The position numbers were made by a program, and so were the translations under genes. The notes beneath the pieces are model-generated. The model did no database searches. It was not told where the DNA came from and was given only the letters and a program-made list of their open reading frames with translations. From an uncultured Chthonomonadales bacterium (GTDB taxonomy: Bacteria > Armatimonadota > Chthonomonadetes > Chthonomonadales > CAJBBX01), in the NCBI GenBank assembly GCA_938005745.1, contig CALLMM010000003.1:10572-74571 (forward strand): DNA of 64,000 bases. Reading direction: 5' to 3'. Positions 7,026 to 52,000 of the stretch are shown in pieces (within the stretch, counting starts at the first letter, position 1; the number at the start of each line of letters is the position of its first letter).

Positions 7026-7057
7026 GGGCGCCTCGGCAAGCAAGAGAGGGGAGGGAG

Positions 7058-7147
7058 CGGAGCGAGTGGGATTCGAACCCACGAACAGGTTTTACCCCGT
7101 TACACGATTTCCAGTCGTGCTCCTTAGGCCAGCTCGGACATCGCTCC
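7058..7147 (-). tRNA. tRNA-Ser (anticodon GGA), long variable arm, no encoded CCA
   Basis: The reverse complement reads GGAGCGA-TG-...-CACGA-CTGGAAA-TCGTG-(variable arm AACGGG/CCTGTT)-GTGGG-TTCGAAT-CCCAC-TCGCTCC-G. It has a 7-bp acceptor stem, a T-loop TTCGAAT, and an anticodon loop with U33 and A37 flanking GGA. Confidence 0.92.
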
Positions 7148-7240
7148 GCGTCGTCATATGCGGGGTGTAGTATAGCAAAGCCCGGAGGAAAAAGTCAAGA
7201 TTTCAGACGACCAGGGAGGCTCTTCCATCCGGACTCGCGT

Positions 7241-8506
7241 TCAGGCGCGGTAGGCTTCATCCAGTAACTCGATGGGATGCCTGACGGTGATCGCGCTTCC
7301 GCGCTCCTTCAGCCCCTGATGTATCCATGCCAGACAGCCGGGATTGCCCGTGGCGATGACGGCTGCTCCCGTCTCGAGGATGAAATCTATCTTTCGCTGC
7401 TGCAGCTTCTTTGCCATCGTCGGCTGGGTCAGGTTGTATATCCCTGCGCTGCCACAGCATGTATCCGATTCGGGCAGGTCTACCAGTTCCAGCCCGGGGA
7501 TGGACTGGAGCATCTTGCGGGGCGGAGCCGTGATCTTCTGACCGTGCGCCAGATGGCAGGCGTCATGGTAGGCGACCCGCAGGTTCAGCGAACCCTTCGG
7601 CGGGCGCAGTCCCAGCTCCATCAGGTACTCCGAGATGTCCCGGACTTTCGCGGCGAACCGACGGGCGCGCTCCGCGTAGAGCGAATCGTCTGCCAGAAGA
7701 TCGCCGTATTCCTTGAGGGTTGAGCCGCATCCCGCCGAGTTGACGATGAAGGCGTCCATTTCGACCGACTCCAGCGCATCCAGCAGCGTTCTGGCGCGCT
7801 GACGGGCATCCTCCAGATATCCATTATGCACATGCAGCGCGCCGCAGCAGCCCGCCGACCGCGGAACCAGCACCTCGCATCCGTTCTGCTGCAGAACGCG
7901 AACGGTCGCCTCATTGGTATCGTGATAGAGAACGCGCATGACGCATCCCGCCAGCATGGCGACCGTGGCGCGCTTCTCTCCGATGGCAGGGTTGATCTCG
8001 GGCAGCGTTCCGACGGAGACTTTCTCGGGAACCGCAGGCAGCGTAACGGGCGCGCTCGCCGAACCGGTCAGCATCTCGGCGGCAAAGGAGGGCATGTAAC
8101 GCTGATGACCGTTAGAGCCTCCCAGAACCTGCGCCGCTTTCAGGGTGGCGGAGAAGAGTCGGGGATTGGTCAGCGTGTTTAGGAGCTGACGCCTGGCAAA
8201 CCGCTGAAGTCCGGGACGCTGTCCGCGCTCCTCGATCTCCGTCCGGAACTCCTCCAGGATGCTGGCGTACTGAACGCCGGAGGGACAAGCGGTCTCGCAG
8301 GCGCGGCATCCCAGACAGGCGTCTATGTGCTTCATCACATCCTGATCCAGCGGGATCACGTTCTCCGCGACGGATCGCATCAGATAGATGCGTCCGCGGG
8401 GCGAATCGGCTTCATTTCCCGTCAGACGGAATGTCGGGCAGGCATCCAGACAGAACCCGCATCGAATGCACTTTACCGCTTTCTCTTCCACCGAACTGTG
8501 CATCAT
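7241..8506 (-). CDS. glcF: Glycolate oxidase iron-sulfur subunit
   Basis: Two 4Fe-4S motifs (CIRCGFCLDACPTF and CLGCRACETACPSGV) followed by two Cys-rich CCG-type regions (GCCGALH, DTCCGSAG). It sits directly downstream of glcE. Confidence 0.85.
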   Translation of the reverse strand: MMHSSVEEKAVKCIRCGFCLDACPTFRLTGNEADSPRGRIYLMRSVAENVIPLDQDVMKHIDACLGCRACETACPSGVQYASILEEFRTEIEERGQRPGLQRFARRQLLNTLTNPRLFSATLKAAQVLGGSNGHQRYMPSFAAEMLTGSASAPVTLPAVPEKVSVGTLPEINPAIGEKRATVAMLAGCVMRVLYHDTNEATVRVLQQNGCEVLVPRSAGCCGALHVHNGYLEDARQRARTLLDALESVEMDAFIVNSAGCGSTLKEYGDLLADDSLYAERARRFAAKVRDISEYLMELGLRPPKGSLNLRVAYHDACHLAHGQKITAPPRKMLQSIPGLELVDLPESDTCCGSAGIYNLTQPTMAKKLQQRKIDFILETGAAVIATGNPGCLAWIHQGLKERGSAITVRHPIELLDEAYRA

Positions 8507-8530: not shown

Positions 8531-9844
8531 CTACAGTCTGCCGATAAAACGCCCCGGACTGAAGAGACGATGCGGGTCGAGGGTTCTCTTTATCCCCCGC
8601 ATGAGCGCAAAGTCCGCGCGGGGCGCGCCCCACACATCTATCTCCGCTTTCAAAACTGGCGGAAGCCGTGTCCAGACCAGATGCCCTCCCTGCGGGATGG
8701 ATCGCTGTAAGCGCCAGATCGGACCGTTTATGTCGCGGGGATGAGCCGTCGCGGTCTCTTGGGGCAGCGCAGCCTCCAGTATCCCGGTCGGCACATGGCA
8801 CAGCGCCGATGCGCCCAGAGAGATCAGGAGTTTCAGAGCATCAGGCGTTTCTGTGGGGCGTACCGTCATCCTGACCTGCACCGGAGAGGGATGATTGACG
8901 ATGTAACGCCGGATGTCGGAATCGGTCCATCCCGCTTCGGACCGCTGAAGCCCGTGCTCCATGAGCAGATCGGTGATCGCCTTCTCCTGCCACTCTGTCG
9001 CTTCCCGGCTGCCGATCAAGCCCACATAGAGATAGGTCCCTTCGTGGCAGGCAATGCTCAGGCTCGCCGGCTGAAACCGCGCGGTATGGACAGCCAGGGC
9101 AGCCGTCGCCGCACGCTGTGTGTCGGGCGCGGAAAAGAGAAGATGCGCCTGTCGCTCCGGAAGGGGATTGGTCTTGAAGGTTACCTCTGTGATCAGTCCG
9201 AGCGTGCCGAACGAGCCGGTGAACAGCTTGCACAGGTCGTATCCGGCGACATTCTTCACGACCTTTCCTCCGCCCTTCACCATCGTTTTGTTTCCTATCG
9301 CCACACGAAGACCGAGCAGCCTGTCTCTCGGAGTTCCAAAGCCGGGGCGAAGCAGTCCCTGTCGGTTGGCGGCGACAATGCCGCCGAGTGTCGTTCGATC
9401 CTCACAGGGAGGATCGAAGGGCAGGAACTGGTTCTGCTCCCGGAGCGTTTTCTGAAGCTCCGCCAGAGGCATCCCCGACTGAACCGTGACCACCATATCC
9501 GGGGGTGAGTACTCCAGCAGGCGATTCATCTGCCCGGTATGCAGGGCAGCCCAGCGTCGCGCCTCCAGCAGATTGCCCTGCTGGATATCGGTTCCGCCGC
9601 CCCAGGGAACCAGCGCGATCCCGTTGCTGTGAGCCTGTTGAATAATCTGCAGGCACTCCTCTTCGGAGGAGGGCGCTGCCAGAAAATCTGCAGGCTTTTC
9701 GTCCAGAACGAACGACTCCCTGCGGGCGTCTTCAGCGCAGATCAGGCTGGTTATGGGAGAGTGGCTTTCAGTGGCGCTCATGATGTGTGATCCTGCTTTC
9801 GCCATCGGGCGAACGGCGCGAATAACGGTAAAGATGGTCTGCAA
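8531..9844 (-). CDS. glcE: Glycolate oxidase FAD-binding subunit
   Basis: FAD-binding PCMH-type domain (ALVPWGGGTDIQ, KNVAGYDL) and position between glcD and glcF. The start could also be ATG 9805 or 9781 (MSATESH...). Confidence 0.8.
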   Translation of the reverse strand: MQTIFTVIRAVRPMAKAGSHIMSATESHSPITSLICAEDARRESFVLDEKPADFLAAPSSEEECLQIIQQAHSNGIALVPWGGGTDIQQGNLLEARRWAALHTGQMNRLLEYSPPDMVVTVQSGMPLAELQKTLREQNQFLPFDPPCEDRTTLGGIVAANRQGLLRPGFGTPRDRLLGLRVAIGNKTMVKGGGKVVKNVAGYDLCKLFTGSFGTLGLITEVTFKTNPLPERQAHLLFSAPDTQRAATAALAVHTARFQPASLSIACHEGTYLYVGLIGSREATEWQEKAITDLLMEHGLQRSEAGWTDSDIRRYIVNHPSPVQVRMTVRPTETPDALKLLISLGASALCHVPTGILEAALPQETATAHPRDINGPIWRLQRSIPQGGHLVWTRLPPVLKAEIDVWGAPRADFALMRGIKRTLDPHRLFSPGRFIGRL

Positions 9845-9985
9845 AAGTGCCGATCAGTCTATTGAAAAAATCCTCGTAAAAACGTCAGCCGGGATGGAAA
9901 AACCTGATAGGTCGGACGACGCGATGTGCGTTGATCTGATCCCGAAAAGCAGGAAAGAGCGACGCAGGGTCGCGGGAATTCCGCC

Positions 9986-42198: not shown

Positions 42199-43131
42199 AT
42201 GACCGGACGCGAGCGCGTACTGGCGGCGATCTCTGGTAGACCGGTAGACCGCGTTCCCTACAGTCTGTGGTATCACTTTCGTCTGACTCCGCCTGCGGGA
42301 GAGAATATGGCGCAGGCGGAGCTGGAGTTCTTTCGCCGATTACGTCCCGATCTGTTGAAAGTCATGCACGACATCCCCTACGAGATGCCTGCGGGACTGC
42401 CACAGGTGGAGGTTGTGGACGACTGGGCGAGGATGCCGGTTCTGGATGGAAAATCCGGCAACTTCGGCGCGCAGTTGAAGACGGTGCAGCAGATCAAAGC
42501 CGGGCTGGACGAGGACGTGCCGGTCATTGATACGGTGTTCAACGTCTTTTCCATTGCTCAGAAAGCCTGCGGGCATCGCGTGATGGGATTTCTCGGCACA
42601 GACCCGGAGAAGGTGCATATCGGTCTGCGAAATATCGCGCAGTCGCTGGCAAACTATGCGCGCGAACTGACGGCGGGCGGCGCGGACGGCATCTATCTGG
42701 CGATTGCGGGCGCAGCGCTGGATTCCATGCCTGCGGAGGAGTACCGTATGCACTTTCTCGCCTACGATCAGCACATTTTGGATGCGGCGGCGGGCGCGGC
42801 GGTGAATGTCGCGCATCATCACGGGAAGGGAATATACCCGGAGCTTGTCCTCTCGCTCAAAGGATATCAGATCTACAGCTGGAGCTGCCGGCTTGCCGGC
42901 AATCCCGACCTGCGCGAGATGCGCCTGAAGACGCAGATGTGCCTGATGTCGGGAGTGGATGAGACCTCGTTTGGAACCTGCACGCCGGAGGATATTGTGA
43001 CGCAGGCGAAGGAGGCGATCTCCGTCACACACGGGCGCAGCTTTATCCTTGCGCCCGGCTGCGCGGTTCCCACACCGCCGGAAACGCCGGAGGAGAACCT
43101 TCAGGCGTTGCGTACTGCCGTTAACGGGTAG
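42199..43131 (+). CDS. Uroporphyrinogen-decarboxylase (URO-D) family protein, embedded in the nuo cluster
   Basis: N-terminal RERVLAAISGRPVDRVPYSLWYHF and C-terminal FILAPGCAVPTPPETPEENL are typical of the URO-D/MtaA-like TIM-barrel family. AAAGGAG SD. It lies 28 nt after nuoM and 57 nt before nuoN. Confidence 0.8.
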   Translation: MTGRERVLAAISGRPVDRVPYSLWYHFRLTPPAGENMAQAELEFFRRLRPDLLKVMHDIPYEMPAGLPQVEVVDDWARMPVLDGKSGNFGAQLKTVQQIKAGLDEDVPVIDTVFNVFSIAQKACGHRVMGFLGTDPEKVHIGLRNIAQSLANYARELTAGGADGIYLAIAGAALDSMPAEEYRMHFLAYDQHILDAAAGAAVNVAHHHGKGIYPELVLSLKGYQIYSWSCRLAGNPDLREMRLKTQMCLMSGVDETSFGTCTPEDIVTQAKEAISVTHGRSFILAPGCAVPTPPETPEENLQALRTAVNG

Positions 43132-43188: not shown

Positions 43189-44667
43189 ATGCCTGGCTCA
43201 CCAACAATCTGGGATGACCTGACTCTCATTCTGCCGCTCATTGTCCTGTGGATCACGTCGTTTGTGCTGCTGCTGGGCGATGTCGTGGTCTGGAAGAAGA
43301 ATAGAGACCTGAATCCGATCCTTGCCATCGTCGGCACGCTGATCGCGCTGGGTATCGCGGTCTATCAGACGATCTCTCTGACCGGCGACAAGGCGTTCGC
43401 CCGATCCCTGAATATGGACGCTCTGGCGCAGGTGAGCATGATTGCGCTGCTGGTGACCGGGCTGCTCGCCATCCTGCTGGCGTGGACCTATCTGAAGAAT
43501 CGGGGGCTGGAGCGCGGCGAGTACTACCCGTTGATGCTGCTCTCCGTCTCCGGCGCAGCGCTGATGGGAGCCGCCAACGACCTGATCGTTCTGTTTATCG
43601 GTCTGGAGATCCTTTCGTTTGCGCTCTATGTCATGGCGGGGTTTTCGCGATCGGATATTCGCAGCGAAGAGGCTTCCATCAAGTATTTCCTGCTGGGCGC
43701 GTTTGCCTCCGCGTTTCTGCTCTACGGGATCGCGCTGGTCTACGGCGCAACACAGACTACGCAGCTATCCGAACTGGCTTCCAGAGTGCACTCCGCACAG
43801 ACCCCGATGCTCGTCGCGGGGATCGGACTGTTGATTGTGGGACTGGGCTTCAAGGCGGCGGTGATCCCGTTCCATCAGTGGACTCCGGATGTCTACGAGG
43901 GCGCGCCGACATCGGTTACCGCCTATATGGCGGGCGCGGCAAAGATCGCCGCTTTTGTCGCGATGCTGCGGGTTTTCGATTCGCTCGCCCCGGTCAGCAG
44001 CGTCTGGCTAGGCGCGATCCAGGCGCTGGCGGTTCTGACCATGGTCTTCGGCAACCTGCTGGCGATCGCACAGACAAATGTTAAGCGTATGCTCGCCTAC
44101 TCCAGCATCGCCCATGCCGGTTATCTGATGGTCGCCATCGCCACGCTGGCGCACAGACTGGACGGTCCGCGCGGGGCGCAGGCGGGCGAGCTTGCTATGA
44201 CCGGCTCCCTGTTCTATCTCTTCGCCTATACCTTTATGACTCTGGGCGCGTTTGGCGTGCTGATCTATCTGAGTAATCGGGGCAAAGACTACCAGCAGAT
44301 TGAAGACCTTCGCGGACTGGTTCGGCATGATCCCCGCACCGCCTATGCGATGCTCTTCTTCATGCTGTCGCTGGGAGGAATTCCACCCACGATGGGCTTT
44401 ATGGGGAAGTGGCAGATCTTCTACGCGGCGCTGTCGGGCGGAGAGATTATGCTGGCGATCGTGATGGCTCTCACCAGTGTGATGGCAGCCTTCTACTATC
44501 TGAAGATCGTCTACGTGATGTGCTTCGAGGAGCCGCGGGAGGCTGCTCCCGCCCCAGCGCAGTTCTCATTTGGCGCGAGCCTCTCGGTGCTGCTGTCGGC
44601 GGCTGCCACCATCCTCTTCGGCATTATGCCCGGACTGCTCTACACCCTTACCGGTCTGGTTCGATAG
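43189..44667 (+). CDS. nuoN: NADH-quinone oxidoreductase subunit N
   Basis: KAAVIPFHQWTPDVYEGAPTSVTAYMAGAAKIAAF, KRMLAYSSIAHAGY and GGAGGAG SD. Confidence 0.9.
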   Translation: MPGSPTIWDDLTLILPLIVLWITSFVLLLGDVVVWKKNRDLNPILAIVGTLIALGIAVYQTISLTGDKAFARSLNMDALAQVSMIALLVTGLLAILLAWTYLKNRGLERGEYYPLMLLSVSGAALMGAANDLIVLFIGLEILSFALYVMAGFSRSDIRSEEASIKYFLLGAFASAFLLYGIALVYGATQTTQLSELASRVHSAQTPMLVAGIGLLIVGLGFKAAVIPFHQWTPDVYEGAPTSVTAYMAGAAKIAAFVAMLRVFDSLAPVSSVWLGAIQALAVLTMVFGNLLAIAQTNVKRMLAYSSIAHAGYLMVAIATLAHRLDGPRGAQAGELAMTGSLFYLFAYTFMTLGAFGVLIYLSNRGKDYQQIEDLRGLVRHDPRTAYAMLFFMLSLGGIPPTMGFMGKWQIFYAALSGGEIMLAIVMALTSVMAAFYYLKIVYVMCFEEPREAAPAPAQFSFGASLSVLLSAAATILFGIMPGLLYTLTGLVR

Positions 44668-44684
44668 TGCATTCTCGGCTCTCG

Positions 44685-44723
44685 AGAGACGCCGGGCGGA
44701 AACCGATTCCGCCCGGCGTCTCT
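44685..44723. terminator. 15-bp perfect GC-rich hairpin between convergent nuoN and the TlpA-like gene
   Basis: agagacgccgggcgg (44685-44699) pairs with ccgcccggcgtctct (44709-44723), with a 9-nt loop. It lies 18 nt after the nuoN stop and 20 nt after the minus-strand stop. Confidence 0.7.
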
Positions 44724-44742
44724 GGTTCTGGCGCCTGTCCGA

Positions 44743-45894
44743 TCAGTGTATGCCAGCCCGCTTCAGCGCGGCGTCCAGCTTCTCCTCGTTCAGTCCCACC
44801 AGACGGGAGATAATGCGCCCTGAGCGATTGATAACCACATTGGTCGGGGTCGCCTCCACGTTATAGAGCCTGGCGACATCGTCTTGCTGACCGTTGATAG
44901 CGGCATAGAAACGCGCCTGATAACGGTTCATGAAGGCGCGCACCTCTTCCGGCGTATCCTTCACATTCACGGAGATGATCACGAATCCGCGATCTCTGTG
45001 CGCGTTGTAGAGCTTGACCAGATGGGGAAACTCCTCCTGACAGGGCGGGCAGTCGTTGAAGAAGAAGTTCAGCAGAACCACCCTCCCCCTGAACTGAGAC
45101 AGTTGAATGGTCTCCCCGGCGGCGGTCTGCAAGATGAAGTCCGGGGCGGGAGGTCCGGTAACAATGTGGTCAACATACTCCAGCGGGGGAAGCGTGCTGA
45201 CGAGCCTTGCTCCCTCCGGGAGCGTGCGGCGGAACGTCTCCTCTGGAACCGGGCGGTCTATCGCGATATTCATGCGGTCTTCGATGACTTTTGGCTCTCC
45301 CGAACGATAGAGTACGACCCGGCGAATCAGGTTGTCCTCCACGGTAGCATAGACTCTGGCGTCAAACTCCTCATCATAGGGGAAGCGCAGAACATACGCC
45401 TGTCGGTCGCCAAAAGGCTTGAGTCCCTCCAGTTCCGCCTCCGTTATACGCTTTGCGAGAGGTATCTCTGAATTTCGCAGATTGCCCTGCAGGAGCAGGG
45501 AGATGATCTTCGCTCCCGGAGCCGGAACGTCCACCTTTCCCAGCAGGTCTGCGCCGATGAGACGCTGCGGCGCGCGCGATCGGGTATAGACGTTTCTGTC
45601 CGGGCGATAGGCGATCAACTCGCTTCCGTCGCTGACCACCAGTGTATTGACCTTCTCGCCCTTTATCTCCAGAATATACTTTCCGGGACGCTGTACTGCC
45701 AGATGCACCGTCGCCTTTATCTCCGGCTCGGCAAGCCGGTTGGTCCAGCTGGCGGTATCGGAGTAGGTCTGCAGATTGCGGTACGTGCTGCTGATCCGGT
45801 TCAGCACCGTGCTGAGAGAGGGGGGAGACTGCGCCTGCGCCCCCATGCAGAGCAGAGGAAGGGCGGCAAGGGCTGGGACTACTTTTCGTATCAT
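44743..45894 (-). CDS. Exported TlpA/ResA-like thiol:disulfide oxidoreductase fused to an N-terminal LolA-like/beta-barrel-half domain
   Basis: C-terminal thioredoxin fold with a CPPC active site (VVLLNFFFNDCPPCQEEFPHL). The ATG at 45894 is preceded by GGGAGG and gives the signal peptide MIRKVVPALAALPLLCMGAQAQ. The ~220-aa N-terminal domain assignment is an inference. Confidence 0.8.
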   Translation of the reverse strand: MIRKVVPALAALPLLCMGAQAQSPPSLSTVLNRISSTYRNLQTYSDTASWTNRLAEPEIKATVHLAVQRPGKYILEIKGEKVNTLVVSDGSELIAYRPDRNVYTRSRAPQRLIGADLLGKVDVPAPGAKIISLLLQGNLRNSEIPLAKRITEAELEGLKPFGDRQAYVLRFPYDEEFDARVYATVEDNLIRRVVLYRSGEPKVIEDRMNIAIDRPVPEETFRRTLPEGARLVSTLPPLEYVDHIVTGPPAPDFILQTAAGETIQLSQFRGRVVLLNFFFNDCPPCQEEFPHLVKLYNAHRDRGFVIISVNVKDTPEEVRAFMNRYQARFYAAINGQQDDVARLYNVEATPTNVVINRSGRIISRLVGLNEEKLDAALKRAGIH

Positions 45895-45965
45895 AGAAGC
45901 CTCCCTGATGGGATGAGATACAACTCTGTTCTCAAATGATCCTGTGGATTCCTTTGGCATGCATG

Positions 45966-45997
45966 AAAAAGAGGGCTGTCTCCTACGGACAGCCCTC
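45966..45997 (-). terminator. Rho-independent terminator of the six-gene membrane operon
   Basis: gagggctgtc (45971-45980) pairs with gacagccctc (45988-45997). On the minus strand it is followed by TTTTT (plus-strand A-run 45966-45970). It lies 21 nt past the stop of the last gene (46018). Confidence 0.75.
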
Positions 45998-46017
45998 CGT
46001 CATGCAGTCGTTACCGC

Positions 46018-46698
46018 TCACTTTAACCAGGGAACGAAGGTTCCGCCAAACTGCTTGATCAGAAAGTCCATGCGCGAGATGAAGAGCGCCATGCGCGCCA
46101 TGATGGTCGAGCCAAAGATCGCGCCGAACGCGATCATCAGAACCCATCGCCCGGTGTTGGCGGTCTTCTGGACGACCTTCGATTTGACCTCGAACGAGAA
46201 GAAGAAGTAGGTCATCACGCAGATGATAATCGCCAGGAAGATCAGGTTGTTGATCGCCCCCGACAGGGTAACCGCCTTCATGGAGCCTTCAGCAGCCTGC
46301 GGCACGATGGGCTTGAAGGTGGTAACGATCTGCTTGTAGTAGAGACCCGCAAAGGACTGGAAGGTCTGTCCCGCGCTCAGTCCCAGCAGGAAACCGATAC
46401 TGATGCGCGCCATCCAGTTATACTTGCGGCTGTAGATGAGGTAGAGCATCAGACCGAGCGGCAGCGCAAGAATCCACCACCATCGCCCCTCATGGAAGAT
46501 CCTCTGATAGAAGTTCGGATAGAGAACATCCACCCACGCCGTTCGTATGGTCCAGCCCATTGCCAGCCCGATGAAGGCGTGCTCAAAGAAGCGGTAGATT
46601 TTGTTCTCTTTGTAGAGAATCGAGTAGATGCCAAGGGTGCAGGCGACGGCGACCCACATCTGGATCGCCCCTGCGTTTGCGCTGATGAAATCGAGCAT
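46018..46698 (-). CDS. Uncharacterised polytopic membrane protein (operon gene 6 of 6)
   Basis: 226 aa with about 6 hydrophobic helices (e.g. IQMWVAVACTLGIYSILY, WWWILALPLGLMLYLIY, LIFLAIIICVMTYFFF). The ATG directly abuts the upstream TAG, with an AAGGAG SD inside the upstream gene. No motif recognised. Confidence 0.75.
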   Translation of the reverse strand: MLDFISANAGAIQMWVAVACTLGIYSILYKENKIYRFFEHAFIGLAMGWTIRTAWVDVLYPNFYQRIFHEGRWWWILALPLGLMLYLIYSRKYNWMARISIGFLLGLSAGQTFQSFAGLYYKQIVTTFKPIVPQAAEGSMKAVTLSGAINNLIFLAIIICVMTYFFFSFEVKSKVVQKTANTGRWVLMIAFGAIFGSTIMARMALFISRMDFLIKQFGGTFVPWLK

Positions 46699-47553
46699 CT
46701 ATCCAACTCCTTGCTGGGATTTCTGACGCCGCTTCTGTGCGAGATAACCGAGGTTGCCTACGACGATCAGGAGAATGATCAGGATATGGGAGACGGAGAG
46801 CGCCAGTCCCTGCGCGGTGGCTCTTCCCGGCTCCTTGACCAGTCCCTCATACTCCAGCGCGCCCTTCAGTCCGGTGAGCATACCGACCATCTGACCGGAA
46901 TCGAGATACTGATAGGCTTCCGGAGCCATGACGGCGGTCGGGCAGAAGACCAGAGGCGTTCCCTTGATGCCCTGCACGAAAGCCACCCACGACTCAAACG
47001 TCTGTGAGGGGGTAACCACGACCAGAACGCCTACATCATTGATATCCTTGAAACGCGCCATCATCGGCAGCCTGACATGGTCGCTGAGCGGAATATTTTT
47101 GGAATCCTGCTTCATGCCCTCCTGAAAGCCGCGTACCATCGCCTTCAGCGTGGCGTTGATCGTGCCGGGCGGTCTGAAGCCCCAGTTAATCCAGTCGGTT
47201 CCGTACTGGTAGTTATAGCGTTTGGCGAGCTTTTCGGCTTCCGCCGCCACCAGCTCTGGACCCTGCGGGTCGAAGCCCATGATGGCGAAGGGGAGACGTC
47301 GTTTCATCAGGTGATGCAGGATGGCGATGGTCTGCGCCCCGTTTTCGCCCCGCGTGCTGGCGGACCAGTCCGCGCCGATGATCACCAGCTTATCGGTGGG
47401 CGCGTTTTCGATCGCTTCAAAGGCGGAGCGCGCCTGATTGCTGGGGATGACCGGAAGCGGCTTGCGGGGGATCAACGCCAGTCCTACCGAGAGAAAGAGC
47501 AGAAGATAGACTATCCGGCGGTCTATGGTCTGTAGTTTTTCCAGGATGCTCAT
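46699..47553 (-). CDS. Uncharacterised bitopic protein: TM helix at each end flanking a ~230-aa soluble domain (operon gene 5 of 6)
   Basis: The ATG at 47553 is preceded by GGAGG, whereas the ORF-track start at 47559 is TTG. N-terminal helix IVYLLLFLSVGLALI and C-terminal helix LSVSHILIILLIVVGNLGYL. No catalytic or nucleotide-binding motif recognised. Confidence 0.75.
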   Translation of the reverse strand: MSILEKLQTIDRRIVYLLLFLSVGLALIPRKPLPVIPSNQARSAFEAIENAPTDKLVIIGADWSASTRGENGAQTIAILHHLMKRRLPFAIMGFDPQGPELVAAEAEKLAKRYNYQYGTDWINWGFRPPGTINATLKAMVRGFQEGMKQDSKNIPLSDHVRLPMMARFKDINDVGVLVVVTPSQTFESWVAFVQGIKGTPLVFCPTAVMAPEAYQYLDSGQMVGMLTGLKGALEYEGLVKEPGRATAQGLALSVSHILIILLIVVGNLGYLAQKRRQKSQQGVG

Positions 47554-47592
47554 ATTCAAACCTCCGCTGTGGAGCCGGTGAGTGCGCCGGAT

Positions 47593-48444
47593 CTAGACTT
47601 CGCGGTCAAAGTAGCTGCCGCGTTCCAGGCTGAGCCAGATACGCAGCGCCGTCGCCAGCAGACCGACGCCCAGACCAAAGCCGACCGCCCGCACCGCCGG
47701 GGCGTTGATCCGTGTCAGGAGCCAGTCGCTCATCGTCTCGATGCGCAGATTGGAGAGCGCGCCTTCCGTTGGCAGCCAGTTGGTGAGGAACTGCCCCGCA
47801 TAGACCTGACCGAGCATCACGATAAAGGCGGCTGCCATCAGAAGCGAGGCTTCGGCGTTTCTGACCCGGAACGCGCGATAGGCGGCGGAGACGATGTAGA
47901 AGGCGATGATGCTGAACATCGTGCCTTCCAGCGCCTGCAGTCCGCCCACGAAGAGGATGCTCCGGATATCCCGGTTGATCTGCGCTTCGCGGCTGAAAGG
48001 CTCCTCCACCATGATCCCGAAGGTCGCCATCAGGATCATGAAGGTGAAGAAGGTCAGGCTGTAGAACCAGCCGGTGCGGAAGCGCAGCAGCGTCTTCCCG
48101 TGGATCATCGTCAGGCTGTAGATGCCCAGTCCCAGAGCCAGAACCGCGACGATCTGTGCGAATTCGCTCATCGGAACCAGGAATCGGGTCAGCGCGTTGG
48201 TCTCCTTGCCGTCTATCAGTTCGGTCGGGAGGAAGAACTCGAGCGCATAGAAGAGACCTGCCAGGAACGTTACCACGGCGATCAGGCTCTTGCGCGCGCG
48301 CGGCTTTAAGAGTTGAAGTCCGAAGAAGATCACCACATAGGCGACGATCAGACCCATCAGGATCAGCCAGAGCGTCAGCCCTTTCTGGGGCGGGAAGCTG
48401 CGCGCAAACCATGCGGCGATCTCATCAACCATGTTACGAAGCAT
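47593..48444 (-). CDS. Uncharacterised polytopic membrane protein (operon gene 4 of 6)
   Basis: 283 aa with about 7 hydrophobic helices and a GGAGAG SD. The alternative-frame ORF 47606-48412 is Arg/Pro/Gly-rich and was rejected. Confidence 0.75.
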   Translation of the reverse strand: MLRNMVDEIAAWFARSFPPQKGLTLWLILMGLIVAYVVIFFGLQLLKPRARKSLIAVVTFLAGLFYALEFFLPTELIDGKETNALTRFLVPMSEFAQIVAVLALGLGIYSLTMIHGKTLLRFRTGWFYSLTFFTFMILMATFGIMVEEPFSREAQINRDIRSILFVGGLQALEGTMFSIIAFYIVSAAYRAFRVRNAEASLLMAAAFIVMLGQVYAGQFLTNWLPTEGALSNLRIETMSDWLLTRINAPAVRAVGFGLGVGLLATALRIWLSLERGSYFDREV

Positions 48445-48483
48445 CGGCTGCTCTCCGGTGGCGCGTCGGGCGCGCCGCTTCGT

Positions 48484-49266
48484 TTAGCGTTTCCACCACA
48501 GGGGCGTGAACCAGTTCATGAGGAAGTTGTCGGGTCCCATAATTGTCGTGATGAGGACACCCAGAATGCAGATCAGCAGGATGACCGCTTTGCCGATATC
48601 CTGACCGACTAGGCTTCCGACGAGGGTCGGTTCGCGGGTCAGAAAGGCGGTTGCCGCGTAGAACTCGTCTCCGATGATCACGTAGTCGCATGCGGCGATC
48701 AGGAAGGGTATCTGGGTGGTGGAGGGCGTTCCCGCGACCTGAATGGCGCCAATCTGGTTGGCGTTCTCCGCCATGATGAGCGATTCGGCGAAGAAGAGAC
48801 CGAAGAGGAAGGCGGTGGCGACCTTCTCGCGGTTGATCAGTCCCGCTACGCCGGCAGCGAAAGCAAACTGGCGGTCGCTGAGAAACATGATGTCTTCCGC
48901 GCGGAAGCTCTCGACGCGCCCCTCCAGGTTGTACGATTCGCGGATCGCCTCCTCCGCCACGGGGATAAAGGAGGCGTCCGCGACCGGCATGATGATCCGG
49001 TTGCCAAACCGCGCCGCCGCGCGCGCCACATAGGCAAGGATCGCCAGCGCCTGCAGGGTGATCACGTCAATGCCCCCCAGTCCGGGCTGCAGGAGCATCG
49101 GGCGCCCCATCTCCGTGGCGCGTCCCACCGCGTCATCAATGGCGTTCAGACCGGGGATGCGTCGGATGAAGGGCTGTTTCCCGCGGCGGGAACGAAAGAT
49201 CATGGTAAGAATAGCCGCACAGATGATAAAGGTCAGCGTGCTGTTCACAGGATCGGAATGTTCCAT
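48484..49266 (-). CDS. Uncharacterised membrane protein with N- and C-terminal TM helices and a central conserved-looking domain (operon gene 3 of 6)
   Basis: 260 aa. N-terminal helix LTFIICAAILTMIF, central region ...IPGLNAIDDAVGRATEMGRPMLLQPGLGGIDVITLQALAILAYVARAAARFGNRIIMPVAD..., and C-terminal helix AVILLICILGVLITTIM. It may correspond to a DUF family that I cannot verify. Confidence 0.75.
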   Translation of the reverse strand: MEHSDPVNSTLTFIICAAILTMIFRSRRGKQPFIRRIPGLNAIDDAVGRATEMGRPMLLQPGLGGIDVITLQALAILAYVARAAARFGNRIIMPVADASFIPVAEEAIRESYNLEGRVESFRAEDIMFLSDRQFAFAAGVAGLINREKVATAFLFGLFFAESLIMAENANQIGAIQVAGTPSTTQIPFLIAACDYVIIGDEFYAATAFLTREPTLVGSLVGQDIGKAVILLICILGVLITTIMGPDNFLMNWFTPLWWKR

Positions 49267-49307
49267 GGAGAGTGCCTCTACTCAGTGTTGATCCGGTTGA
49301 CGGCGTA

Positions 49308-49877
49308 TCAGGAAGCGGACGGCGGCGTCTGATCCTGCGCATCTCGTCTGCGCCTGCGGGGTCTGGAGCGGGGAGCCGGCGGATCCGATACCACTGTGTC
49401 CACTCTCTCTGGAAAAGGTCGGAGCGATTTGACAGCTCTCAGCACCGACTCGCGATCCCCCGTCTGCCCGTCCGGCGCAAACCGCAGAAAAACTCCCCGA
49501 AAGTTGTCCAGTCGCGACGGCGAGGGCAGGGGGGAGAGCCTGACCCCGTCTTTGTAGAGCAGAACGCGCCGCACCCTCTTCCACTCAATCTCAAAGCGAT
49601 TTGCCCCATACCGGCAGCGCGCGGCGAGGTTGGTCAGGCGATACTGACAGGGACAGAGATACTCGGCAGCGGCGGAGAGTATCATCAATATTGCCGCGAA
49701 GGAGAAGAAGAGATTGTGAAAGAGCATCCAGGCAACGGACGCCACAAACAGGGAGGCTCCCAGAACGACCGGCAGACGCTGCGGCTGTTGCCGCAGCAGA
49801 TGAATATTCCAGACGAGATGATCCGTCTCTTGCAGTGGCTCCGCTTCTGAAGCAGGGTGGGTTTGCTGATTAATCAT
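49308..49877 (-). CDS. Uncharacterised protein: TM hairpin plus beta-rich (bacterial PH-like?) domain and Arg/Pro-rich tail (operon gene 2 of 6)
   Basis: Two adjacent hydrophobic helices (LPVVLGASLFVASVAWMLF, LFFSFAAILMILSAAAEYL), then ...RFEIEWKRVRRVLLYKDGVRLSPLP..., ending in PRSRPRRRRRDAQDQ. Confidence 0.65.
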   Translation of the reverse strand: MINQQTHPASEAEPLQETDHLVWNIHLLRQQPQRLPVVLGASLFVASVAWMLFHNLFFSFAAILMILSAAAEYLCPCQYRLTNLAARCRYGANRFEIEWKRVRRVLLYKDGVRLSPLPSPSRLDNFRGVFLRFAPDGQTGDRESVLRAVKSLRPFPERVDTVVSDPPAPRSRPRRRRRDAQDQTPPSAS

Positions 49878-49964
49878 CCCATCGTGATTCGGTTTAGAGT
49901 GAGAGCTTCCCGGGGTTGAGGTGCGGATAAGGCTGAACCATTATAGACGTTCGCCCGCGAAATG

Positions 49965-50336
49965 TCAACCGGCTCCCTCCGGTTTACCGCTCTCTCCGCT
50001 CTCTGTTTCGACGCTTCGAAGATGAGAAAGCTCTTCGATCCGGTCAATCAGAAGCTCGATATTCTCGCGCTTCTCGATCAGTTTTGCCGCCAGCTGGACG
50101 TTGCCGATCCCCACAAACGGTGCGATGAAGGGAGAGGTAACGACCAGGCTCTGACTGGCGACAAAGGTCAGGGGCTTGTGCATCTCCAGAAAGAGGATGG
50201 CGGGCGTCTGCATGCCCCGTTTGACGATGCCCTGCGCGATCTTCTCGATCAGGTCGTCACGCTCCTGCGGGGTCAGGTCTTCCGTCCAGTCGCGCATCAG
50301 CAGCGATCTCCAGAGTGTCGTGGTTGAAACCGACAT
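49965..50336 (-). CDS. Uncharacterised small protein (operon gene 1 of 6)
   Basis: 123 aa. The mid-section is moderately hydrophobic (TPAILFLEMHKPLTFVASQSLVVTSPFIAPFVGIG) and the tail is a C-terminal acidic coil. It is the first ORF downstream of the consensus promoter. Confidence 0.6.
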   Translation of the reverse strand: MSVSTTTLWRSLLMRDWTEDLTPQERDDLIEKIAQGIVKRGMQTPAILFLEMHKPLTFVASQSLVVTSPFIAPFVGIGNVQLAAKLIEKRENIELLIDRIEELSHLRSVETESGESGKPEGAG

Positions 50337-50366
50337 GCCGGGGGGCGTCAGGCGGTTACCCTGCCG

Positions 50367-50395
50367 ATTATAGTGTCTGGCGTATGCTGTGTCAA
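50367..50395 (-). promoter_or_regulatory. Perfect consensus sigma-70 promoter TTGACA-N17-TATAAT driving the six-gene membrane operon
   Basis: Plus-strand tgtcaa at 50390-50395 and attata at 50367-50372 are separated by exactly 17 nt. The predicted +1 near 50360 gives a ~24-nt leader before ATG 50336. Confidence 0.65.
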
Positions 50396-50486
50396 TCCCC
50401 GATCAACGCTCCGGTATGAATACCTTTACAAACGGGCAGAGTTTGTGGATGTGACGGGGTTTTTTAAGTAGGAAATGTGAAAATGG

Positions 50487-50515
50487 TTGACAGTGTGAAG
50501 CGTGTCTGGTATACT
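50487..50515 (+). promoter_or_regulatory. Sigma-70 promoter TTGACA-N17-TATACT for infC-rpmI-rplT
   Basis: TTGACA at 50487-50492, a 17-nt spacer, and TATACT at 50510-50515. It is divergent from the operon promoter 92 bp away and lies inside the ORF-track infC extension. Confidence 0.6.
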
Positions 50516-50563
50516 TTGCTTCGTTTCCGCGAACGTTTTTTTGACTTTAGAGAGGTAGTAAAC

Positions 50564-51094
50564 ATCAACAAAGATTTTCGTGTCAACGAACAGATTCTGC
50601 GGCCTCACAAGGACTATCCGCGTGTCCGTGACGTGCGTCTGATCGACGAGAACGGTGAGCAGATGGGGATTGTGAATGTCCGTGAGGCTCTGCAGATTGC
50701 GGGCGAGCGAGGACTGGATCTGATCGAGGTCGCTCCTCTAGCCAGTCCCCCTGTCTGCCGTATCATGGACTATGGACGCTACAAGTACGAGCAGTCCAAG
50801 AAAGAGAAAGAGTCGCAGAAGAAGCAGAAGGGCGGCGATATCAAGGGGATCTGGTTTCGCCCGGGAACCGATGACCACGACGTAGATTTTAAGATCAAAA
50901 GCATCATCAAGTTCCTGAAAGAGGGCGATAAGGTGAAGGTCACCGTGCGTTTCCGAAGCCGCGAAATCACCCATCCGGAATTCGCCCGCAAACTTCTGGA
51001 TCGTGTTGTTGAGATGGCTGGCGAGGTAGCGTCTGTGGAGAAGCCCGCGGCGATGGAGGGCAGAACCATGACGATGATCCTCGCTCCTAAATAG
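50564..51094 (+). CDS. infC: Translation initiation factor IF-3 (probable non-AUG start)
   Basis: INKDFRVNEQI...VRLIDENGEQMGIV...PPVCRIMDYGRYKYEQSKKEKE aligns by eye with IF-3 N-termini. ATC at 50564 lies 8 nt after GAGAGG. The upstream in-frame GTG/ATG codons (50477, 50483) lie upstream of the predicted +1. Confidence 0.85.
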   Translation: MNKDFRVNEQILRPHKDYPRVRDVRLIDENGEQMGIVNVREALQIAGERGLDLIEVAPLASPPVCRIMDYGRYKYEQSKKEKESQKKQKGGDIKGIWFRPGTDDHDVDFKIKSIIKFLKEGDKVKVTVRFRSREITHPEFARKLLDRVVEMAGEVASVEKPAAMEGRTMTMILAPK

Positions 51095-51122
51095 ACGTTC
51101 CAGTCGTCTTATTGCGCTCCGG

Positions 51123-51157
51123 CGACCCTCCGCCCGCTGAAGGTGAGCGGAGGGTCG
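51123..51157 (+). other. 11-bp hairpin in the infC-rpmI spacer (possible attenuator or L20-responsive element)
   Basis: cgaccctccgc (51123-51133) pairs with gcggagggtcg (51147-51157), followed by tttctg. The function is not determinable from sequence. Confidence 0.35.
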
Positions 51158-51231
51158 TTTCTGCCGCATCCATATACACAAAAACTGGCAGAGGAGAGGA
51201 ATCTCCTGCCGGAAAATGAGGATTTTCACGC

Positions 51232-51432
51232 ATGTCCAAGCTGAAGACTCGTAAAACCGCCGCCAAGCGCTTCAAAATCAGCGCAAACGGCAAGTTAATG
51301 CGAAGATGCACCGGGCTGAACCACCTGATGCGAAAAAAAAGCATGTCGCGCCGGCGCAGACTCCTCAAAGGGAGTGTGCTCTTCCAGGGCGACAACAAGC
51401 GCATGAGCCGCATGATGGGCGAAGGCGCATAA
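51232..51432 (+). CDS. rpmI: 50S ribosomal protein L35
   Basis: MSKLKTRKTAAKRFKISANGKLMRR. 66 aa. Confidence 0.95.
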   Translation: MSKLKTRKTAAKRFKISANGKLMRRCTGLNHLMRKKSMSRRRRLLKGSVLFQGDNKRMSRMMGEGA

Positions 51433-51506
51433 CTGTTAGATATCAACACGAGGGAATGGGACGCAAAGCGGGCTGACGCCCCTCCCATCCGATAGGAGAG
51501 TGAATC

Positions 51507-51872
51507 ATGCCGCGCGTGAAACGCGGGACGCTTGTCAAAAAGCGCCATAAAAAGATCATTGAGTCCGCCTCCGGGTACTGGGGCGGTAAGAAGAATCTCT
51601 TCAAGACCGCCAATGAGCAGTTCCAGCACAGCGGAAACTACGCCTACCGGGACCGACGCAACAAAAAACGCCACTTCCGACAGCTCTGGATTGCGCGGAT
51701 CAGCGCCGCCTGTCGTCTGAATGGCGTCAGCTACAACCGTTTTATCGAGGGGTTAACCAAGTCTGGGATTGTCGTGGATCGCAAGATCCTGTCTGAACTG
51801 GCAGTTTCGGACCCGGGCGCGTTTACGCAGCTCGTGGCTCAGTCGGCGAGCGCGCTGCGTCCTGCGGGCTAG
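51507..51872 (+). CDS. rplT: 50S ribosomal protein L20
   Basis: MPRVKRGTLVKKRHKKIIESASGYWGGKKNLFKTANEQ. 121 aa. Confidence 0.95.
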   Translation: MPRVKRGTLVKKRHKKIIESASGYWGGKKNLFKTANEQFQHSGNYAYRDRRNKKRHFRQLWIARISAACRLNGVSYNRFIEGLTKSGIVVDRKILSELAVSDPGAFTQLVAQSASALRPAG

Positions 51873-51915
51873 CCTGCCGGGAATGGCGGGTCCCACACCT
51901 ATCTCTTACACACGA

Positions 51916-51973
51916 CGCTCCGTTCGCCGCTTCTCAGCAGCCATCTGACTGAAGCGGGTGCGGAGCGTTTTTT
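51916..51973 (+). terminator. Rho-independent terminator/attenuator between rplT and pheS
   Basis: Long interrupted hairpin: outer arms cgctccg (51916-51922) and cggagcg (51961-51967), inner arms ccgcttc and gaagcgg. It is followed by TTTTTT (51968-51973), 28 nt before the pheS ATG. Confidence 0.7.
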
Positions 51974-52000
51974 CTTGTTCTGGCGAAAGGGGTTTGCAGA

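Follow-up and report, generated by a model that had tools for sequence, protein, structure and literature searches.

The window, a 64,000-nt stretch of DNA from an uncultured Chthonomonadales bacterium (contig CALLMM010000003.1, assembly GCA_938005745.1), carries a cluster of membrane-protein genes at 45966-50395. It consists of six co-directional minus-strand open reading frames, g1 to g6, which are present at the sizes given in a preliminary description of this DNA (Table 1). The intergenic gaps, in order, are 87, 41, 39, 39 and 0 nt, the ATG of g6 directly adjoining the TAG of g5; these distances, the transmembrane (TM) features of the products and the position of the cluster between nuoL/M/N-type and TlpA-like redoxin genes and infC-rpmI-rplT all agree with that description. 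The pheST genes also lie nearby. For g3 to g6, a ribosome-binding site of GGAG/GAGG type stands 7-9 nt before each ATG. An independent gene caller starts g1 at an internal ATG at 50297, which may be the true start and yields 110 amino acids. An alternative TTG start two codons upstream of the g5 ATG gives 286 amino acids.

Table 1 Genes and regulatory features of the locus, with positions in the window
Feature	Position	Strand	Description
Promoter P1	50367-50395	-	TTGACA-N17-TATAAT, 12/12; ~30 nt 5' of g1 ATG
g1	49965-50336	-	123 aa; small protein, putative adaptor
Promoter P2	49940-49968	-	TTGACA-N17-TATAAT, 12/12; between g1 and g2, ~60 nt 5' of g2 ATG
g2	49308-49877	-	189 aa; TM hairpin, ~80-aa beta-rich domain, Arg/Pro tail
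g3	48484-49266	-	260 aa; DUF6754 (Pfam E=4e-90); most conserved subunit
g4	47593-48444	-	283 aa; polytopic, 7 predicted TM helices
g5	46699-47553	-	284 aa from ATG; TM, predicted periplasmic Rossmann-like domain, TM
g6	46018-46698	-	226 aa; polytopic, ~6 TM helices
Intrinsic terminator	45965-45998	-	11-bp G+C-rich stem, 7-nt loop, T5 run

P1 is the perfect promoter reported previously, but it had been taken for the single best one of the window, and P2, which is equally perfect, had been missed. The -35 hexamer of P2 contains the stop codon of g1. These two are the only perfect sigma-70-type matches in the window, against ~0.0013 expected from base composition. The hairpin-T5 terminator said to close the cluster is likewise present; its hairpin, at 45998-45970 and with 7 G-C pairs among the 11 bp of the stem, begins 20 nt past the g6 stop codon, and it is the sole terminator-like site within 44500-52000. 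A perfect promoter also stands at the cluster head in 11 of 45 related loci (~0.26 expected), a recurrence consistent with strong expression. Together, P1 before g1, P2 before g2-g6 and the one terminator would give strong expression from one or two overlapping transcripts. The earlier view of an abundantly expressed housekeeping assembly agrees in its first half with the conserved promoter, which fits strong expression. Its housekeeping part is unproven; the system occurs commonly in Armatimonadota as well as in several candidate phyla, and was not seen among model organisms. Searches of plasmid and phage collections returned no DUF6754, the family of g3, in line with the proposal that the cluster is not mobile-element cargo.

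All six products had been considered unassignable. This holds for g1, g2, g4, g5 and g6, which have no match in Pfam, NCBIfam, PADLOC or PDB, but not for g3, a full-length member of Pfam DUF6754 (PF20539, profile positions 15-249 of 257). The Pfam entry carries no function, partners, topology or literature, and no paper mentions the family. A confident match to a characterised transporter or complex had been named as evidence against a new system; profile searches gave none for any g1-g6 product. Walker A, HExxH, CxxC and lipobox motifs were not found in g1-g6, in accord with the preliminary description, which had also noted no Cys cluster, and a motif scan found no GxGxxG motif in any of the six.

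Structurally, g3 and g5 are the two subunits modelled with confidence by AlphaFold (AF2; pLDDT 80 and pTM 0.76 for g3, pLDDT 94 and pTM 0.89 for g5). The alignment of g3 contains 21 residues invariant across phyla. Its predicted topology, which runs from an outside N-terminus through a TM helix and a cytoplasmic Rossmann-like alpha/beta domain to a second TM helix at the C-terminus, is supported by a K/R-rich segment following TM1, by N-terminal signal-peptide and fn3 extensions in other phyla, and by zinc-ribbon fusion variants with an odd number (one or three) of extra TM helices. The extensions of g3 in other phyla are periplasmic fn3 domains or otherwise large. The g5 family comprises 4,913 representative clusters without any Pfam model. 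The predicted topology of g5 places both termini, which are K/R-rich throughout the family, in the cytoplasm and a Rossmann-like alpha/beta domain in the periplasm. In both domains, conserved residues cluster past the first strand and at the strand ends, the usual ligand site in Rossmann-like folds. Foldseek searches, proposed earlier as a check, returned only generic Rossmann folds for the two models (TM-scores 0.3-0.5) and no characterised transporter family. The best PDB matches of the g5 domain, and one for g3, are MoCo-carrier/LOG/PpnN (SLOG-type) proteins at probability 0.9-1.0, but with E ~2e-3, TM-scores of 0.3-0.5 and 10-16% identity, and no LOG match is found by sequence. Moreover, those proteins are soluble and cytoplasmic, whereas the g5 domain is predicted to be periplasmic and membrane-anchored at both ends.

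The polytopic subunits are defined by family alignments. In g4, the motif FSxxAFYxxSAAYRAFRxR is conserved and K+R-rich loops alternate; shorter homologues in other phyla have ~5 TM helices, and there is no family match among 46 members and no PDB match. The g6 family, which has no family or PDB match, conserves YFFFS...GRWxLMIxFGAxFGxTxMAR. Natural g5-g6 fusions (P0407 and P0451) each join the two parts through a single extra TM helix, the number demanded by the topologies predicted for g5 and g6.

Of the two remaining proteins, g1 has no Pfam or PDB match; its family alignment shows a hydrophobic core, PAILFLExHKP...PF, that is conserved, and a helix, LIxRIEE, at the C-terminus. The hydrophobic hairpin of g2 spans residues 34-77, and its Arg/Pro tail is lineage-specific. 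The beta-rich domain of g2 may be described as resembling a bacterial PH domain: weak bPH_6 matches occur in 5 of 35 homologues (best E=0.0016), and the window g2 itself gives none. With its TM hairpin ahead of a short beta-rich domain, g2 resembles the YdbS/YdbT-type membrane-flanked PH proteins (Pfam bPH), although all g2 members lie under the family threshold.

We compared 80 species-level loci spanning about ten phyla, including Armatimonadota, Poribacteria, Cloacimonadota, Planctomycetota, WOR-3, Zixibacteria, Fermentibacteria/Aegiribacteria, Eisenbacteria, Stahlbacteria and Ignavibacteriales. The order g3-g4-g5-g6 is kept in essentially all loci that extend far enough, and the subunit families are conserved across phyla at E-values of 1e-25 to 1e-120. 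Behind a single ATPase pair there are often two or three complete g3-g6 cassettes in tandem, and loci of Poribacteria and Cloacimonadota hold only g3-g6 within 7 kb. No conserved neighbour besides the system's own genes was found in the related loci. These comparisons show that, in about ten phyla, g3-g6 have been passed on, kept in order and duplicated as one unit. The evolutionary unit is therefore a four-gene core, g3-g6, with two accessory genes, g1 and g2, whose order in the window, g1-g2, reverses the usual g2-g1 and is specific to the clade. The preliminary description had proposed a six-gene undescribed membrane complex with conserved co-occurrence; a real, conserved and co-ordered set of membrane proteins stands, but its core is four genes.

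In other phyla the operon reads g2-g1-ATPase-X373-g3-g4-g5-g6, an order found from both directions, in which the ATPase is an ASKHA protein of GlmL type and X373 its 373-aa partner. Among 34 loci that contain the ATPase and extend at least 2.5 kb beyond it on the downstream side, 19 have g3 within 2 kb downstream of X373, and g1 lies directly 5' of the ATPase gene even where g3-g6 are not nearby. Along its full length the ATPase matches PF13941 (E=1e-125); it also matches the NCBIfam GlmL models of the GlmL/MutL proteins (TIGR01319), which are accessory to the glutamate mutase and ornithine aminomutase pathways. It differs from these in scoring well under the GlmL and Or-4 equivalog cut-offs (222 vs 475 bits), in a ~120-aa C-terminal extension and in accompanying membrane proteins instead of a B12 mutase. 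The N-terminal domain of X373 is a lipoyl/biotinyl-like barrel-sandwich, according to precomputed PF13375/PF00364 matches. Thus, the absence of an energising subunit noted earlier is true for the window, where neither member of the pair was found within 64 kb, but not for the many other phyla with the pair in the same operon. A linked ATPase is missing in most loci of Armatimonadota, Poribacteria and Cloacimonadota. One Capsulimonadaceae genome has X373 ~330 kb away from its cassette and no ATPase next to X373, which indicates that ATP coupling is not universal.

In many loci the operon is flanked by gcvT-H-PA-PB on one side and a lipoate-protein ligase gene on the other, the gap to the latter being at most ~15 nt, in an array that contains no L-protein gene. 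In an alternative setting, a TonB-dependent receptor with ExbB/ExbD lies downstream. Only some lineages show these two links, which could stem in part from inherited synteny.

We postulate, at somewhat less than even confidence, that the cluster encodes the membrane part of a widespread multi-subunit inner-membrane machine, not described before, whose most likely role is solute uptake. This DUF6754 system is new and absent from the literature, and its uptake role is a proposal. From synteny and the g5-g6 fusions we infer that g3-g6 probably assemble into one complex, which would carry a small molecule through the inner membrane. In this scheme g5 would take the substrate outside, g4 and g6 would make the path, and g3 would receive the substrate or couple the step on the inner side. 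As putative membrane adaptors, g1 and g2 would in many other phyla dock the ATPase and X373, and one such soluble energising pair could serve two or three cassettes. The window complex, with no pair in the window, would be served in trans or work without it. In favour of uptake we counted the fixed g3-g6 order, unit duplication, g5-g6 fusions, the eight-gene operon, the confident g3 and g5 models with their topology evidence and clustered conserved residues, the gcv/lipoate-ligase and TonB settings, including the gcv genes divergently upstream in five Armatimonadota loci, and the conserved promoter. Against it we counted the lack of a transporter-family match (profiles of g1-g6, Foldseek of g3 and g5), the generic nature of the fold matches, the absence of the ATPase pair from the window, the distant X373 of the Capsulimonadaceae genome, the g3-g6-only loci of Poribacteria and Cloacimonadota, the limited spread of the gcv and TonB links, and the fact that GlmL-type proteins are known as B12 mutase accessory proteins and not as transport ATPases.

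In general terms, the layout is like that of ABC/ECF importers: an external alpha/beta binding-type domain, two polytopic subunits, a cytoplasmic coupling part and, in other phyla, a soluble ATPase module encoded alongside. ECF modules share EcfAA'T, much as one ATPase pair is common to two or three DUF6754 cassettes. Like BtuB/FhuA-type uptake systems, some DUF6754 loci are encoded beside a TonB-dependent receptor with ExbBD. In contrast to ABC/ECF importers, the system has neither a Walker A nucleotide-binding domain nor a match to ABC or ECF families of membrane domains or binding proteins, its associated ATPase has the actin/Hsp70/sugar-kinase (ASKHA) fold, and the g5 external domain is TM-anchored at both ends. 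GldF/GldG-type ABC-2 systems have an accessory protein with a large external alpha/beta domain between terminal TM helices, beside polytopic subunits. The predicted g5 layout is similar, but there is no ABC_transp_aux or ABC-2 match and no GldA-type ATPase.

An appreciable but minor chance falls to an envelope-biogenesis enzyme complex, in which the g3 and g5 domains would serve as transferase or carrier, building or modifying a lipid-linked or envelope component, and g4 and g6 as flippase or scaffold. GT-B half-domains (TreT, PimA, UGT) and nucleotide-binding Rossmann proteins are among the Foldseek matches, but these are weak (E>1e-3, TM-score ~0.3) and generic, and no glycosyltransferase, acyltransferase or flippase family was matched. 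Domains predicted on both membrane faces, the periplasmic g3 extensions, and a perfect promoter and core-gene setting suited to a constitutive function agree with this reading. However, envelope-synthesis genes do not recur around related loci, and multiplied cassettes behind one ATPase pair, with the TonB-receptor setting, suit uptake better.

We give a small chance to an ATP-driven chaperone, membrane-remodelling or signalling assembly, whose ASKHA ATPase would act like Hsp70, actin, FtsA or a reactivase and be recruited by g1 and the PH-like g2. The named relatives of the ATPase, its adjacency to g1 without a cassette and the likeness of g2 to membrane-flanked PH-domain proteins favour this; the many loci keeping the system without a linked ATPase speak against it. 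Signalling output domains such as kinase, GGDEF or HTH are neither present nor recurrent. The Rossmann-like domains both bear conserved sites that resemble pockets, which points to ligand handling.

It is quite improbable that the system is a membrane partner of glycine cleavage that, for example, re-oxidises or services the lipoyl H-protein or couples cleavage to the membrane. The gcv-ligase arrays without an L-protein gene, the lipoyl-like domain of X373 and the divergent upstream gcv genes of five Armatimonadota loci point that way, but most loci, the window included, have no gcv genes nearby, and flavin, NAD, CxxC and haem motifs are missing from the six products. On this reading the multiplied cassettes are difficult to account for, and glycine or lipoate uptake explains the gcv link equally well. 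Finally, unrelated genes adjacent by chance, or spurious reading frames, are scarcely credible: only the missing annotation speaks for them, and they are refuted by the cross-phylum synteny, E-values and fixed order, with fusions, unit-wise duplication, ribosome-binding sites and tight spacing adding to the case.

The cluster consists of six minus-strand open reading frames, g1 to g6 in transcription order, which encode proteins of 123, 189, 260, 283, 284 and 226 amino acids. The intergenic gaps from g1 to g6 measure 87, 41, 39, 39 and 0 nt, with the TAG of g5 abutting the ATG of g6, and each of g3 to g6 is preceded by a GGAG/GAGG-type ribosome-binding site. These ORF and junction data confirm the six co-directional genes, their sizes and their tight spacing as given in the preliminary description. 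An independent gene caller run on an identical contig returned the same six genes, with g1 begun at an internal ATG (110 aa). The start of g1 is ambiguous (50297-50336): the ATG at 50336, yielding 123 aa, has no obvious ribosome-binding site; the alternative ATG at 50297, yielding 110 aa, is preceded by a GGAG at about 11 nt and is a better fit to the N-termini of homologues.

Two promoters that match the consensus at every position are found in the cluster, P1 ahead of g1 and P2 between g1 and g2. They are the only perfect 12/12 matches across the 64-kb window, for which about 0.0013 would be expected from base composition. The preliminary description had rightly reported the first as perfect but overlooked the second. 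P2 is not a duplicate of P1, because the two have no sequence in common beyond the hexamers. The second perfect promoter ahead of g2 suggests that two nested transcripts may be produced, and the gaps of at most 87 nt, the lack of an internal terminator and the single terminal one, which had been noted from the start, are compatible with one transcript running through g1 to g6. No riboswitch or leader element was detected with Rfam in 45800-50700. Among homologous loci from other genomes and metagenomes (L numbers below), 11 of 45 have a perfect 12/12 promoter immediately before the cluster's first gene, where about 0.26 would be expected by chance in the zones concerned; the operon has therefore conserved its strong promoter. 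These cluster-head promoters make up 11 of only 20 perfect matches in the 1.9 Mb scanned.

Transcription signals of the g1-g6 cluster, in window positions
Feature	Position	Strand	Description
Promoter P1	50395-50367	minus	TTGACA-N17-TATAAT, 12/12
Promoter P2	49940-49968	minus	TTGACA-N17-TATAAT, 12/12; g1 stop codon within its -35 hexamer
Terminator	45998-45970	minus	11-bp hairpin stem, then T5; begins 20 nt past the g6 stop codon

The six proteins had been regarded as unassignable. This does not apply to g3, a full-length member of Pfam DUF6754 (PF20539; 301.8 bits, E=4.1e-90, residues 10-243; gathering score 27 bits), whose homologues from all phyla reach 315-409 bits, but it stands for g1, g2, g4, g5 and g6, which have no Pfam or NCBIfam match. 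Pfam scans of 35-46 homologues per family revealed no recurrent family except a weak bPH_6 match in 5 of 35 members of the g2 family (best E=0.0016); the window g2, in which a transmembrane (TM) hairpin is present, lacks it, and for g4, g5 and g6 the family-wide scans returned nothing beyond scattered noise hits. Profile searches against PDB sequences were empty or at noise level for all six families, and profile-profile comparison found no significant relationship between g3 and g5 or between g4 and g6. No subunit was matched with confidence to a characterised transporter or complex family. A motif scan confirmed that Walker A, HExxH and lipobox motifs are absent from all six proteins, as first described, and likewise found no CxxC or GxGxxG. 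Public sources label all six 'hypothetical'.

The DUF6754 gene occurs in at least 593 species-level genomes, scanned as one genome per species. In 80 retrieved loci, tblastn and profile HMMs reveal the order g3-g4-g5-g6 wherever the contig is long enough, the lineages being Armatimonadota, Poribacteria, Cloacimonadota, Planctomycetota, WOR-3, Zixibacteria, Fermentibacteria/Aegiribacteria, Eisenbacteria, Stahlbacteria and Ignavibacteriales. The genes g1 and g2 join this core in Armatimonadota and a small number of further lineages, usually in the order g2-g1-g3. Clustering of all ORFs in the loci revealed no further widely conserved neighbour beyond the set. The claim of a six-gene unit is upheld in that the genes belong to a conserved set, but the real unit is a four-gene core with two accessory genes, within an eight-gene system (g2-g1-ATPase-X373-g3-g4-g5-g6). 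The closest relatives of the window cluster are Armatimonadota of the Chthonomonadales type. There, in L164 and L166 as in the window, the order is g1-g2-g3 and the cluster adjoins infC-rpmI-rplT; nearly all other lineages have g2-g1, and the swap is thus clade-specific. The swap (window 49308-50336; L164 and L166 versus L003-L050) coincides with the gain by g2 of its own perfect promoter.

Structurally, g3 and g5 share one layout, in which an alpha/beta domain of five or six strands is preceded by a TM helix and followed by a long one at the C-terminus (AlphaFold2 models; g3, pLDDT 80 and pTM 0.76; g5, pLDDT 94 and pTM 0.89). Foldseek searches of both models against the PDB returned only generic Rossmann-like matches, with E>1e-3 and TM-scores of 0.3-0.5; for g5, those with a probability of at least 0.9 were concentrated on MoCo-carrier, LOG and PpnN proteins, again at E>1e-3. 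One Rossmann-like domain is found on each side of the membrane. That of g3 is assigned to the cytoplasm, with the N-terminus outside, on three independent grounds: a K/R-rich stretch follows TM1 family-wide; the N-terminus in other phyla bears an fn3-like module together with a signal peptide, or, in Cloacimonadota, a ~700-aa extension; and variants in Armatimonadota begin with a zinc ribbon, after which come one or three additional TM helices. The termini of g5 are K/R-rich on both sides of its TM helices, and its domain is therefore periplasmic. In the window, g4 has seven predicted helices with alternating positive loops (about five in shorter homologues), and g6 has about six. Natural fusions demonstrate that g5 and g6 can be joined: P0407 (591 aa) and P0451 (522 aa) contain exactly one added TM helix at the junction, linking the cytoplasmic C-terminus of g5 to helix 1 of g6, as the topologies require. 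The most conserved subunit is g3, with 21 residues invariant across phyla, many of which are acidic or glycine residues that follow strand 1 or sit at the ends of strands. In Cloacimonadota (L059 4811-7732; L055, L071, L074, L080), g3 has a signal peptide as well as the ~700-aa extension, which lacks any Pfam match; in Poribacteria, WOR-3 and other lineages, g3 has one fn3-like module, which contains a DxPNDDG motif.

Two further genes are inserted between g1 and g3 in Aegiribacteria (L082, L078) and Eisenbacteria (L069). The first encodes a protein of 600-624 aa that matches PF13941 (Pfam 'MutL', E=1e-125), the GlmL/hydantoinase-like ASKHA ATPase family, and scores under the named GlmL equivalog cut-offs; the second encodes X373, a soluble 373-aa protein without a family. 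In L029 (Armatimonadia) and L050 (Planctomycetota), this pair comes shortly after g6. A metagenome search from the X373 side yielded 80 loci. The ATPase is adjacent in 49 of them, and many hold the complete eight-gene operon; where the ATPase and at least 2.5 kb of downstream sequence are available, g3 follows X373 within 2 kb in 19 of 34 loci. Directly upstream of the ATPase stands g1, even with no cassette (the g3-g4-g5-g6 unit) nearby. In seven loci (L091, L110, L143, L120, L150, L117, L094), two or three complete cassettes follow a single ATPase-X373 pair; the DUF6754 cluster genes are a conserved, co-ordered set that is duplicated as a unit. The earlier view that there is no energising subunit holds in the window, where neither the PF13941 ATPase nor X373 was found by tblastn or HMM, but other phyla encode the ASKHA ATPase within the homologous operon. 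In a Capsulimonadaceae genome, X373 is about 330 kb away from the cassette and lacks an adjacent ATPase. Together with the absence of the pair from the window, this indicates that the soluble module is facultative or acts in trans in Armatimonadota. Profile searches of X373 and the ATPase against PDB sequences gave nothing usable (best, X373 against RraA, E=0.07). A second class of X373 homologues, with no ATPase or cassette nearby, adjoins or is fused to a class I methyltransferase (L163 with P0294; P0293; L097, L103, L106 and similar loci). In L150, a SIR2_2-domain gene separates g1 from the ATPase, which is in turn separated from X373 by a gene for an '8xMP' octameric membrane protein (6406-7536 and 9492-9896).

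In many eight-gene loci, the genes gcvT, gcvH, gcvPA and gcvPB lie co-directionally upstream of the operon, and a lipoate-protein ligase gene follows it with a gap of at most about 15 nt, overlapping in one case (loci including L084, L087, L110, L128, L130, L132 and L143). Genes for a TonB-dependent receptor, ExbB and ExbD instead come directly after g6 in Aegiribacteria-like loci (L084 14715-19165; L087, L078, L082); the receptor there bears a carboxypeptidase-regulatory-like N-terminal domain. In five Armatimonadota loci (L017, L019, L023, L025, L031), gcvT-H-PA-PB is divergently placed upstream of g2, about 1.5 kb away. No gcv, lipoate-protein ligase or TonB receptor/ExbBD genes are present in the window.

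The invariant gene order, the unit-wise duplication and the g5-g6 fusions indirectly suggest that the four core proteins form one complex, which would translocate a small molecule. We postulate that g5 would provide an external receptor domain, g4 and g6 the translocation path, and g3 an internal acceptor or coupler, with g1 and g2 acting as putative adaptors for the ATPase pair. Solute uptake fits best, since cassettes share one ATPase pair and occur in the neighbourhood of TonB receptors and sandwiched between gcv and lplA; we hold this function tentatively, as somewhat short of probable. A bolder form of the proposal, which we consider unlikely, is a new class of primary-active transporter in which modular four-subunit cassettes would be energised by a GlmL-type ASKHA ATPase and its 373-aa partner, docked via g1/g2, in place of an ABC, P-type or V-type ATPase, and would import glycine or lipoate in gcv/lipoate-ligase operons. 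To our knowledge, no lipoate importer is established for most bacteria.

The system most resembles an importer that depends on a binding domain and shares its energiser, as ABC/ECF transporters do, but no test placed it in those families: it lacks a nucleotide-binding domain, and its proteins belong to no recognised family of membrane domains or binding proteins. In contrast to ABC transporters, which contain a subunit with Walker A/B and ABC signature motifs, the six proteins have no Walker A and no ABC_tran match; g4, g5 and g6 match no ABC, ABC-2 or SBP family in Pfam or PDB profiles, and no ABC ATPase recurs among 160 related loci. The associated ATPase is a member of the GlmL family but in a new genomic context, and the cluster belongs to DUF6754 through g3 only. 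Besides solute uptake, an envelope-biogenesis enzyme complex has perhaps one chance in several of being correct, and an ATP-driven chaperone, remodelling or signalling assembly is slightly less likely still. A dedicated membrane partner of glycine cleavage is improbable. Chance adjacency of the genes is effectively refuted. The remaining probability falls to functions beyond these readings. A defence system was rejected, as no PADLOC model matched: g1 to g5, the ATPase and X373 had no match, and g6 had only a noise-level ZorA match (E=0.0015, 15 bits). Mobile cargo was likewise rejected, on a search with g3 as sole query that found no DUF6754 homologue in the plasmid and phage collections.

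The suggestion of an undescribed envelope complex survives as that of an undescribed, strongly promoted membrane assembly, corrected as to its unit, its number of promoters and its supposed lack of an energiser. No description was found of the DUF6754 system, known here from sequence and models: a search of the available literature returned no paper on the system, on DUF6754, PF20539 or PF13941, and nothing relevant for GlmL with ASKHA. Database models are missing for five of its eight protein families. Its extent is considerable, with more than 6,000 protein clusters at 90% identity for DUF6754, about 4,900 at 50% for the g5 family and more than 7,000 at 90% for X373. Unusual traits are the Rossmann-like domains on both membrane faces, the partner ATPase of ASKHA fold, and cassettes multiplied behind one pair. 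If a transporter, it would represent a new architecture for coupling energy; should it prove otherwise, it remains a major membrane complex still to be characterised. The gcv/lipoate-ligase and TonB contexts offer a concrete lead for groups seen almost exclusively in metagenomes (Cloacimonadota, Aegiribacteria, Poribacteria, Armatimonadota), and there are cultured armatimonads that can be used for genetics.

In independent annotation, the cluster is flanked by nuoL/M/N-type genes, a TlpA-like redoxin, infC-rpmI-rplT and pheST. On the plus strand, a promoter that scores 11/12 and has an extended -10 TG points towards infC (50487-50515), about 90 nt from P1, and the two constitute a compact divergent promoter region. 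As this promoter falls inside the longest infC ORF (GTG at 50477), translation of infC probably begins further downstream, perhaps at a non-canonical codon. The TlpA-like gene (44743-45960, minus strand; DUF2092 and AhpC-TSA/Redoxin) begins about 10 nt past the terminator, co-directional with the cluster; a TlpA-like neighbour also follows g6 in L166 and L167, there as two split genes. A uroporphyrinogen decarboxylase (URO-D) gene at ~42199-43131 (mapped from L001 14136-15068) sits between two Proton_antipo_M (nuoM/N-type) genes, an unusual insertion for a complex I gene array.
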